Part shown: piece by piece, positions 24,401 to 27,301 of the stretch
How the letters are laid out: each line of letters begins with the position of its first letter
How positions within the stretch are numbered: position 1 is the first letter of the stretch
From: Minisyncoccota bacterium
GTDB taxonomy: Bacteria; Patescibacteriota; Minisyncoccia; Phycocordibacterales; UBA9973
Assembly: GCA_041664605.1 (NCBI GenBank)
Contig: JBAYKO010000001.1
Location: forward strand, 9,220 to 73,219
Reading direction: 5' to 3'
Length of the DNA: 64,000 nt
Notes under the pieces: generated by a model
Databases searched by the model: none
What the model was told of the DNA's origin: nothing
The model's input: only the letters and a program-made list of their open reading frames with translations
Position numbers and translations under genes: made by a program

Positions 24401-27301
24401 ATGAATATTATGAAAATCTACGACCATAAAAAAATAGAAAAGAAGTGGCAAAAAGAATGGGAAAAGAAAAAAATTTACCAAACTTCTGATGATATAAAAA
24501 AATCAAAATTTTATATTTTAGATATGTTTCCTTACCCATCAGGCGAAGGGCTTCATGTTGGGCATCCGCGTGGTTATATAGGAACAGATATTTATTCTCG
24601 TTATAAAAGAATGAAAGGTTGTAATGTACTTCATCCGATGGGATGGGATGCTTTTGGTTTACCAGCAGAACAATTTGCTATAAAAAATAAGATTCATCCA
24701 GAAGTTGCTGTTAAAAAAAATATAAAAAGATATAAAGAACAATTATCAATGATCGGTTTTGATTATGATTGGTCAAGAGAAATTAATACAACAGATCCGG
24801 AATATTATAAATGGACACAATGGTGTTTTTTAAAGTTTTACGAAAAAGGTTTAGCTTATGAATCTTCTGAACCAATAAACTGGTGTTCTGTGTGTAAAAC
24901 TGGTTTAGCTAATGAAGACCTAGAGGGAAATACTTGTGAGCGTTGCGGGACTGTTGTTGAAAAAAGACCAATGCGTCAATGGGTTTTAAAGATTACAGAT
25001 TATGCAGAAAGATTACTTGATGACTTAAATGATTTAAATTGGCCAGAATCAATAAAAATTTCTCAAAGAAATTGGATAGGGAAATCAGAAGGATCAGAAA
25101 TTGATTTTAAAATAAAAAATAGTGAACTAAAAATAAAAGTATTTACAACAAGAGCAGATACTTTATTTGGTGCTACTTATTTGGTTTTAGCCCCGGAACA
25201 TAAACTGATTGAAGACTTACGATCAGAAATAATAAATTTTAAAGAAGTTAAAAAATATATTCATGAATCAGAAAATAAATCAGAGATTGAAAGAATGTCA
25301 GAAGACAAAGCAAAGACGGGAATAAAATTAGAAGGAGTTTCGGCGGTCAATCCAGTAAACGGAGAAGAAATTCCAGTTTGGGTGGCTGATTATGTGTTGG
25401 GACATTACGGCACAGGAGCAATTATGGCAGTTCCAGCTCACGATGAAAGAGATTTTTCTTTTGCTCAAAAATATAACATTCCCATTAAAGAAGTTGTTGT
25501 TCCAGAAAGGATTGACAAAAGAAACCCACCTATTACAGGTAAAAATAAAATTGAAAGACAAAATGTTCAGGTTGTTGTTAGGAATCCTAAAGATGGAAAG
25601 ATTCTTTATCTAAGGTCAGATAAACATAACTGGAATACATTTCCCATGGGAGGAATAGAAAAAGGTGAAGATGTTTTAGAAGCCGGAATAAGAGAAGTTT
25701 TAGAAGAAACAGGTTATAAAAATTTAACAAATGGAAAAATTTTAGGAGGGCAAGTTCGTGCGGAATATTTTGCAAGCCATAAAGATGAAAATCGTATATC
25801 TTATACGACCCTAGTTTCCTTCGATTTAATAGATGAAGAAAAAGAGGAAGTTTCAAAAAAAGAAAAAGATGAACATAAACCTCGCTGGGCAGACTTAAAA
25901 GATTTAACTACCACTTTTATGGTTCATGCAGAAATGGATATTTGGCTTGAAAAAATTGCTGGCAAAATTGGAACTTTTAAAGATGAGGGCGTTTTAATTA
26001 ATTCTGGGAAATTTAATGGGATGGAAAGTGTTAAAGCTCAAAAAGAAATTACAGAATTTGTCGGAGGTAAAATTACTACAAAATATAAACTTCAAGATTG
26101 GACTTTTTCGCGACAACGATATTGGGGAGAACCGATTCCACTTATACATTGTGAAAAATGTGGAATTGTTCCTGTTCCTGAAAAAGATCTCCCAGTTTTA
26201 TTACCAAAAGTAAAATCATATGAAGTTTCAGAAACAGGAGAGTCCCCACTTGCAAAAATTGAAAGTTTTGTGAATACAACTTGCCCAAAATGTGGAGGTG
26301 AGGCCAAAAGAGAAACAAATACTATGCCCCAATGGGCCGGTTCTTCATGGTATTATCTTCGCTATATTGATCCAGAAAATAAAAAAGTTTTTGTCGATAA
26401 AGATAAAGAAAAATATTTTTCCCCAGTTGATTTTTATGTTGGGGGGACTGAGCATGCGACAAGACATTTGATCTATGTTCGTTTTTGGCATAAAGTTCTT
26501 TTTGATTTAGGTTTTGTAAATTACAAAGAGCCATTTTTAAAATTAAAAAACCAAGGGTTAATAATTGCATCTGATGGAAGAAAAATGAGTAAGCGTTGGG
26601 GGAATGTGGTTAATCCAGATGAAATGGTAAAAACTTATGGTGCAGACACACTTCGGGTTTACGAAATGTTTATGGGGCCATTTGATCAAATGGTTGCATG
26701 GAACACAGAAAGTGTTATGGGAGCAAGAAGATTTATAGAAAAAATTTGGCGTTTACAAGAAAAAGTTTCTAAAGAAAAAAGTAATCCTGAAATAAAAAAA
26801 CTTTTACATAAAACAATAAAAAAAGTAACTGATGATATTGAGAATATGAGCTATAACACAGCAATATCTTCAATGATGATTTTGGCGGGAGCAATGGAAA
26901 AAGAAGAAAAAATTAATGAAAATGATTATAAAAATTTACTACAGATTTTAGCGCCTTTTGCTCCATATATAACTGAAGAAATTTGGTTTGAATTAGGAAA
27001 TAAGAAAAATATTCATTTAAGTGATTGGCCAGAACATGATAAAAATATAATTATTGATGATAAATTTATAATTGTTATCCAAATAAACGGAAAAGTTAGG
27101 ACTGAAATTGAAATAAATGCAGACGAAACAGAAGAAGAAATAAAAAATAAAACTCTACAAAATGATATTGTAAAAAACTGGCTAAAACTTTCGCAAGGCG
27201 AAGGTTCGCCCGGCCAGAAAACTGGCTTAGGGACAGAAGATAAAGAAATAAAGAAATTTATTTATATCAAAAACAGATTAGTTAATATAGTGACAGGTTA
27301 G
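24401..27301 (+). CDS. leuS: leucyl-tRNA synthetase with an inserted Nudix hydrolase domain
   Basis: HIGH motif [8 protein letters not shown]; CP1 editing domain [13 protein letters not shown]; KMSKS motif [10 protein letters not shown]; an embedded Nudix box at about 25645..25716. Confidence 0.9.
   Translation: [966 protein letters not shown]

Follow-up and report, generated by a model that had tools for sequence, protein, structure and literature searches.

Aminoacyl-tRNA synthetases (aaRSs) are among the most conserved enzymes. It is rare for a bacterial aaRS to carry an additional catalytic domain, and where one occurs it usually gives a clue to a hidden function. The principle of an essential synthetase with an extra domain is known from isoleucyl-tRNA synthetases (IleRSs) with a GNAT domain (NCBIfam NF040702, 'ileS_w_GNAT') and from the new domains of eukaryotic aaRSs. 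Synthetases are also the main source of diadenosine tri- and tetraphosphate (Ap3A and Ap4A), which are degraded by Nudix enzymes (PMC4734340). The known Ap4A hydrolases (e.g. NUDT2, lupin 1F3Y and Aquifex aq_158 3I7U) are free-standing. Here we describe a Nudix domain that is instead embedded in a synthetase, i.e. the leucyl-tRNA synthetase (LeuRS) encoded by leuS in a stretch of 64,000 nucleotides (hereafter the window) of contig JBAYKO010000001.1 from a Minisyncoccota bacterium (assembly GCA_041664605.1, positions 9,220–73,219). The components are familiar, as are aaRSs with extra enzymatic domains; what is new is the combination of Nudix domain and synthetase, its recurrence over insertion sites, copy numbers and two aaRS classes, and its apparently cassette-like evolution. 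The architecture is non-standard, as an earlier sequence-only reading of the window had it. We found neither a curated family model for a Nudix-bearing aaRS nor, in the full text of open-access papers, any description of a LeuRS– or aaRS–Nudix fusion. NF040702 matches the window LeuRS weakly and over the IleRS body only. Unlike those aaRS appendages, the extra domain is a Nudix domain, lies inside the CP1 editing domain rather than at a terminus, occurs in up to three copies and appears to be exchanged as a cassette.

The leuS open reading frame (ORF) occupies 24401..27301 on the forward strand, as do all features of the gene given below, and encodes a bacterial-type LeuRS of 966 amino acids (aa); an identical public protein (P0003) starts three codons later, at 24410. 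The window has a G+C content of ∼30%, and its best protein matches are 'Candidatus Paceibacterota' metagenome-assembled genomes (MAGs) of the candidate phyla radiation (CPR)/Patescibacteria. The protein scores 1011 bits against TIGR00396 (cut-off 548) and contains the HIGH motif of the aminoacylation site as HVGH (aa 52–55, 24554..24565) and the KMSKS motif as KMSKR (aa 728–732, 26582..26596). Its CP1 editing domain is in two parts. The N-terminal part (aa 223–366, 25067..25498) is recognized by PF13603, of which positions 1–146 of 185 match aa 223–372 (E = 1.3e-65) before the profile is split by the Nudix insert, while the C-terminal part (aa 526–565, 25976..26095) resumes after the insert. 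The editing motifs are also found, i.e. the T-rich TTRADT at aa 249–254 and the 12-residue GTG...HD motif at aa 337–348, which includes the editing Asp D348. Among 95 homologues, H52, G54, the editing residues T249, T250, R251, T254 and D348, and G530 and S535 in the resumed CP1 do not vary, and V53 and H55 are kept in at least 90%. An AlphaFold2 (AF2) model built on the 95-sequence alignment has a mean predicted local distance difference test (pLDDT) score of 87.7 over the whole LeuRS and superposes on LeuRS crystal structures with template modelling (TM) scores of 0.80–0.85, normalized to the target. With a TIGR00396 score above cut-off and the HIGH, KMSKS and CP1 editing motifs all intact, the window enzyme is, as far as sequence can tell, a functional bacterial LeuRS, in agreement with what had first been read from its HIGH and KMSKS motifs. 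The leucine-specific domain, which precedes KMSKS in Thermus LeuRS, is missing (query residues 725 and 728 correspond to Thermus thermophilus residues 581 and 637); it is also missing from the consensus of the 95-LeuRS alignment (aa ∼724–732, window 26570–26596). In the C-terminal domain, a 15-residue Gly/Ser/Pro-rich stretch (aa 931–945, window 27191–27235) is predicted to be disordered (pLDDT <50).

The inserted Nudix module spans aa 367–525 (159 aa, 25499..25975). In an alignment to T. thermophilus LeuRS (1H3N), query residue 366 corresponds to residue 362 and query residue 526 to residue 377, so that the 159 residues stand in place of a 14-residue CP1 editing-domain loop (T. thermophilus 363–376), a net gain of 145 aa. 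The insertion point is in a surface loop, 18 residues past D348, and the final ∼40 CP1 residues, ending KYKLQDW, come after the insert. The insert of about 150 aa reported earlier is thus real, and its position needs correcting: it lies within CP1 rather than between CP1 and the catalytic core, and alignment of orthologues shows that the region is neither an ordinary CP2 nor a leucine-specific segment. The Nudix box (aa 417–439, 23 aa, 25649..25717), with the metal-binding residues E432, E435 and E436, matches the pattern Gx5Ex7REUxEExGU perfectly, as had been noted, and is the sole strict or relaxed match in a six-frame translation of the window. The Nudix family model PF00293 matches aa 387–506 over profile positions 4–121 of 134 (E = 3.1e-15), and a chance match is excluded because its 56.8 bits are far above the gathering cut-off of 21.1. 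Further conserved features of the module are a β1 Arg (R386), a box of the form GGx4Ex7REx2EExG[YF], a ten-residue subfamily signature (aa 456–465, 25766..25795; consensus [YF][FY]AxHK[DN]xNR) in which K461 and R465 are invariant, and a Glu (E488) followed by a Trp (W496). The signature residues are presumed, from sequence, to have a phosphate- and base-binding role. In the AF2 model the insert has pLDDT values of 90–94 and is predicted to adopt the Nudix fold, i.e. an α/β/α sandwich with the box on a loop–helix–loop.

All testable defining features of the Nudix superfamily are therefore present. Profile match, predicted structure and conservation together rule out a chance match or an ordinary LeuRS segment, and support the earlier view of the insert as a complete module: on the model, it is a complete, independently folding Nudix domain inserted in-frame into a loop on the surface of the editing domain. 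We found no Pfam match to intein or homing-endonuclease domains in the LeuRS and no repeats flanking the insert beyond short A-rich matches, and the G+C content of the insert (0.31–0.33) is the same as that of its flanks. With neither splicing or endonuclease domains nor flanking repeats, and with host-like composition, an intein or a recently acquired mobile element is ruled out.

We then compared the module with known Nudix enzymes. A single-sequence search of the PDB gave Aquifex Ap4A hydrolase (3I7U, E = 9e-6) as the best match and RppH as the next, and a profile search gave lupin Ap4A hydrolase (1F3Y, E = 5e-8), aligned via a common 'RxNV' β1 motif. The module shares the fold and the catalytic box with the Ap4A hydrolases, with ∼20–25% identity and a likeness that is mostly in the N-terminal half, but, unlike them, has an HKxxNR motif of its own and carries an 'IDxxNPPxxGK' arm at its N-terminus. 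Asymmetric Ap4A hydrolases have a Tyr 16–18 residues past the Nudix box. Y456 stands at +17, and 209 of 216 canonical-site modules have Y or F at this position; this Tyr is also found in RppH, so it is not exclusive to Ap4A hydrolases. By hhalign, Y456 (+17) and K461 (+22) are in register with Y82 and K87 of human NUDT2, for which an approximate sequence was used. RppH/YgdP (NCBIfam PRK00714) shares the 'RxNV' β1 motif as well as the Tyr at +17 and is among the top Foldseek matches; RppH also cleaves Ap4A/Ap5A and Np4-capped RNA (PDB 7SP3 is RppH bound to Ap4A), and its specific C-terminal region is absent from the module. A further relative, the free-standing uncharacterized MutT/Nudix protein 2AZW of Enterococcus faecalis, is 18% identical to the module.

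The module is not peculiar to this genome. PF00293 was found in all 120 best LeuRS matches (57–67% identity) from a 5.8-billion-protein database, and the strict Nudix box in 112 of them; in most of the other eight, either one residue is deleted ahead of the box or a single substitution leaves REx2EE intact, and P0109 has lost the RE dipeptide of the box. A motif and tblastn scan of one genome per GTDB species gave 563 tblastn-confirmed relatives. Among the best 80, which were inspected, 79 ORFs match both the Nudix and LeuS models and one locus is a truncated leuS fragment, and all 80 are in Patescibacteria-type MAGs. Groups named in the motif scan include Taylor-, Kaiser-, Yonath-, Wildermuth-, Vogel-, Yanofsky- and Kerfeldbacteria; the few record titles naming other phyla are presumed to be MAG mislabels. 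Public records label these proteins 'leucine--tRNA ligase' only.

Within the module, R386, G417, G418, R431, E432, E436, G438, K461, R465 and W496 are invariant in the 95 LeuRS, and E423, E435, H460 and N464 are at least 90% conserved. In a set of 299 modules from every context, the metal ligands E432, E435 and E436 are at least 98% conserved and K461, N464, R465, R386 and W496 hardly vary. At insertion site ∼210, a 'type B' lineage has paired E423Q and R431A substitutions and retains the metal ligands. Mean pairwise identity is 0.50 for the module (0.57 for its core), 0.475 for the anticodon-binding/C-terminal region and 0.63 for CP1. These patterns indicate strong purifying selection both for keeping the module and for preserving its catalytic residues. 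The idea that the LeuS of this genome alone had acquired a Nudix module is thus replaced by that of a conserved trait of a large CPR lineage, with a dedicated aaRS-associated subfamily.

To define this subfamily, the window's own 159-aa segment was searched against 1.84 billion representative proteins, which gave 532 matches at E <= 1e-3 and 138 at E <= 1e-10; an insert-only search of a word-indexed protein database returned two fragments only. The best 150 of the 532 matches are mostly LeuRS or LeuRS fragments and include ∼35 free-standing proteins of 150–200 aa that share its motifs, the 'IDxxNPPxxGK' arm at the N-terminus among them. LeuRS proteins of Paceibacteria-type CPR bacteria carry one to three copies, sometimes in tandem, at five or more sites, i.e. 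around profile positions ∼210 (before CP1), ∼238 (at the start of CP1), 367 (the window's site), ∼585 and ∼625. Copies within one protein are 21–46% identical, while those at the same site in different proteins are 60–90% identical. This indicates that the modules of multi-copy LeuRS are old, separately maintained paralogues, and rules out recent intragenic duplication as their source.

The same subfamily also occurs in a class II synthetase. Five archaeal-type prolyl-tRNA synthetases (ProRSs; P0204 and four relatives) carry it between the anticodon-binding and C-terminal domains, as 160 aa in place of 4 aa; examples are the 643-aa proteins encoded on DPANN-like contigs at L092:2906-4837 and L089:2762-4693. 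The closest ProRS homologues, labelled Nanoarchaeota or Woesearchaeota, are without the insert, and their flanking segments are 80% and 74% identical. The ProRS module represents an independent, apparently recent recruitment in another domain of life.

Free-standing members were followed in seven gene neighbourhoods, a small sample. In four of them, an aaRS gene is at most two genes away: P0135 is 1 nt upstream of a Nudix-bearing leuS with the same YchF–DUF5671–leuS synteny as in the window; P0203 is 10 nt upstream of leuS; P0150 starts 12 nt after argS, and ileS comes two genes later (locus L081); and P0151 is two genes upstream of a Nudix-bearing proS. The other three are P0161 (4 nt downstream of fpg/mutM), P0174 (adjoining another, generic Nudix gene) and P0184 (adjoining a PRK-family, i.e. 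phosphoribulokinase/uridine kinase, gene). The linkage of free-standing members to aaRS genes is suggestive. The Nudix gene that follows ileS in L081 and the other Nudix genes there were considered as family members and rejected: they score 23–33 bits against the family hidden Markov model (HMM) and are without KxxNR. On motifs and distribution together, the modules form a distinct Nudix subfamily that occurs almost only in or beside aaRS genes of ultra-small prokaryotes. In the window, a 144-aa ORF with a TTG start (23528–23962) lies between the DUF5671 gene and leuS, the position of the free-standing family Nudix gene in the syntenic contig; it has no Pfam match and is not similar to the Nudix family HMM.

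The history of the module differs from that of its host gene. Pairwise identities of module and rest of LeuRS are poorly correlated (Pearson r = 0.21, Spearman −0.10), compared with r = 0.73 for a control of N- versus C-terminal body, and an independent set of 78 GTDB LeuRS gives r = 0.29–0.40 for the module against 0.80 for the control. Individual pairs depart in both directions: P0014 and P0117 have LeuRS bodies that are 86% identical and modules that are 36% identical, while the window module is 76–78% identical to those of P0059 and P0069, where the LeuRS bodies are only 59–61% identical. The sharpest case is that of two syntenic leuS genes, L093:2081-5002 and L094:3001-5886, with DNA that is 75–90% identical outside the module. 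Identity drops abruptly to 0.32–0.62 between nt ∼1111 and ∼1606, and this interval coincides with the module (aa ∼371–536), its edges lying within a few residues, indicating that the two loci differ by cassette replacement. A second DNA comparison (L019 versus L036) gave a soft dip only over the module and is not decisive. Taken together, the alignments indicate that the module is exchanged like a cassette between leuS genes. Two routes would account for this: the cassette may be replaced by homologous recombination between conserved flanking sequences, or paralogues that once stood in tandem may have been lost differentially, and such a tandem pair is present in P0132 at the window's site (367). 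An earlier suggestion of a mobile insertion holds in so far as the module appears to be swapped between related leuS genes, and fails in that it is old and under purifying selection.

What might the module do? Its conserved metal ligands and box make it highly probable that it is an active Mg2+-dependent pyrophosphohydrolase using E432, E435 and E436. That its function is tied to aaRS chemistry or to tRNA, rather than the outcome of a random fusion, is somewhat favoured. We give an even chance to the whole reading in which a LeuRS-embedded catalytic Nudix cassette has an aaRS-linked role with hydrolysis of ApnA compounds as its likeliest mechanism. The most likely single mechanism, put forward tentatively, is hydrolysis in cis of adenosine-5'-polyphospho compounds (Ap4A, Ap3A and Ap4N). 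Such compounds arise when the enzyme-bound aminoacyl-adenylate reacts with ATP or another nucleotide, and the Nudix module would cleave them at source, regenerating ATP/ADP and AMP; R386, H460, K461 and R465, all basic, might hold the polyphosphate chain. Hydrolysis at source could thereby prevent the build-up of alarmones or cap precursors in nucleotide-scavenging organisms. We rank ApnA hydrolysis first because of the sequence resemblance to Ap4A hydrolases and RppH together with the aaRS origin of Ap3A and Ap4A. Ap4A hydrolysis, proposed in the sequence-only reading, is accordingly the leading candidate, with a distant resemblance to ApnA hydrolases and RppH behind it, and is unproven. The proofreading role proposed alongside it, taken as amino-acid proofreading, has no support: pyrophosphate bonds are what Nudix enzymes attack, and the LeuRS has kept its canonical editing site.

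Several observations weigh against ApnA hydrolysis. None of the curated NCBIfam Ap4A-hydrolase models was passed; the module scores only 23–28 bits against the NCBIfam RppH models (cut-offs 116–259), and so does not belong to the curated RppH family; and fold comparison of the AF2 model (Foldseek) singles out no specificity class. Locus L081 holds both a family member and, right after ileS, a different Nudix protein with the motif 'WSFPKGH', which we take, from our own reading of its sequence, to resemble canonical Ap4A hydrolases; this pair hints at different jobs. The coupling of one free-standing member to fpg/mutM suggests a MutT-like, nucleotide-sanitizing role, and another member stands beside the PRK-family gene. 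ArgRS, the neighbour in one case, is not known to make Ap4A without tRNA. Cassette swapping would be unusual for a plain housekeeping enzyme, and the neighbourhoods are few. The window's gene neighbours (YchF, DUF5671, MurJ and LepA) gave no functional clue.

An alternative that we regard as unlikely is generic house-cleaning of oxidized or non-canonical (d)NTPs, as by MutT, NudI or NUDT15, with the domain fused to an essential constitutive gene for expression in a tiny genome and with no mechanistic coupling to LeuRS. A random fusion of this kind leaves unexplained the repeated and independent insertion of one subfamily (at least five LeuRS sites, and ProRS) and the aaRS linkage of four of the seven free-standing members.

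Less probable still is an enzyme acting on RNA or tRNA ends and brought to its substrate by the synthetase, either by RppH-like removal of 5' pyrophosphate or Np4N caps or by trimming a 3'-pyrophosphate or other nucleotide adduct from the CCA end as it enters the adjacent editing site. Such a role would fit the place of RppH among the best sequence and structure matches, with the shared 'RxNV' motif and Tyr, and the insertion into a domain that binds the tRNA 3' end. That several aaRSs are involved (Leu and Pro, with Arg and Ile as neighbours) would be more readily explained by a function at the level of tRNA than by one specific to Leu, and the HAD and histidine-phosphatase inserts of related LeuRS and IleRS could add a phosphatase step. 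However, the RppH models score far below their cut-offs, an RNA-binding extension is not evident, the insertion sites are scattered over LeuRS, and cleavage by RNase P normally leaves a monophosphate at the 5' end of a tRNA. A further reading, which we hold to be about equally doubtful, is that of an exchangeable protective or repair cassette acting in cis in aaRS genes of episymbiotic CPR bacteria and DPANN archaea against a nucleotide-type poison or lesion at the synthetase–tRNA step. Its target could be a toxin that mimics an adenylate, a nucleotide made by a toxin, or a tRNA end bearing a pyrophosphate or a cap, and biological conflict would drive the swapping of variants between lineages.

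A role in conflict or immunity is improbable. Here the cassette would act by degrading a nucleotide-type toxin directed against the synthetase or its tRNA (e.g. aminoacyl-adenylate mimics or toxin-made nucleotides), with variants swapped in an arms race. The decoupling of module and host-gene histories in both data sets and the sharp replacement between L093 and L094 speak for it; many deep subtypes circulate, and the family is found in both CPR bacteria and DPANN archaea. LeuRS is moreover a known target of an adenylate-mimic toxin, and the PDB contains TM84–LeuRS and the self-immune AgnB2 LeuRS. On the other hand, the putative substrate-binding residues are nearly invariant across subtypes, which points to one constant substrate; the gene neighbourhoods that were inspected showed neither toxin nor defence genes; acyl-phosphoramidate and sulfamoyl linkages are not substrates of classical Nudix chemistry; and the swaps could reflect neutral recombination or differential loss of tandem paralogues, as the P0132 pair illustrates. 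Finally, a non-catalytic structural or tRNA-binding appendage (e.g. compensating for the missing leucine-specific domain) or a benefit-free selfish in-frame insertion is very improbable, given that the metal-binding glutamates are conserved in extra copies and free-standing genes alike, that intein or homing-endonuclease signatures and flanking repeats are absent and composition is that of the host gene, and that the module is kept across hundreds of species.

Other domains are also found in the synthetases of this lineage. Related Paceibacteria-type LeuRS (P0006, P0062, P0045, P0064, P0110, P0077 and P0016) carry further in-frame surface domains, i.e. YdeN-like serine hydrolases (α/β fold) at ∼241 and ∼587, a HAD phosphatase at ∼634, a DUF559 endonuclease-like domain at ∼238 and a 125-aa insert without a family match at ∼587. 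LeuRS thus seems, on these sequences, to be a hotspot for inserted hydrolases in the Paceibacteria-type lineage. In L081, an IleRS of 1184 aa (L081:6094-9648) has an inserted histidine-phosphatase domain (His_Phos_1), and a generic Nudix gene starts 1 nt after it; the same locus holds argS, the family-type Nudix gene, thymidylate kinase and dUTPase.

Elsewhere in the window, the region upstream of ychF (16088–20738) encodes a 734-aa primase-polymerase/D5-like protein and a 539-aa large serine recombinase, probably a remnant of a prophage or integrative element. A LOOT RNA (Rfam RF03000) lies on the reverse strand at 14570–14686 and matches the full-length model with 80.9 bits (gathering cut-off 46.4). 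The six tRNA genes of the window form two loose groups, Gly-CCC, Arg-CCT and Phe-GAA at 32518–33755 and Val-GAC, Ser-CGA and Glu-TTC at 39832–41598, and there is no tRNA-Leu gene near leuS.

In brief, one Nudix subfamily has been recruited repeatedly into LeuRS and independently into archaeal-type ProRS, and has been kept across hundreds of species of the least-understood bacterial radiation. Cassette swapping is an unusual evolutionary mode for a housekeeping gene. If the targets are tRNA ends or toxins, the module would represent a new quality-control or immunity layer of translation, and a protective cassette in cis would be a new kind of immunity in translation, embedded in the target itself. 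If Ap4A-type by-products are removed at source, the module would for the first time provide a built-in connection from aaRS side-chemistry to the turnover of alarmones or cap precursors, and would give a direct handle on how nucleotide-scavenging episymbionts manage such molecules.

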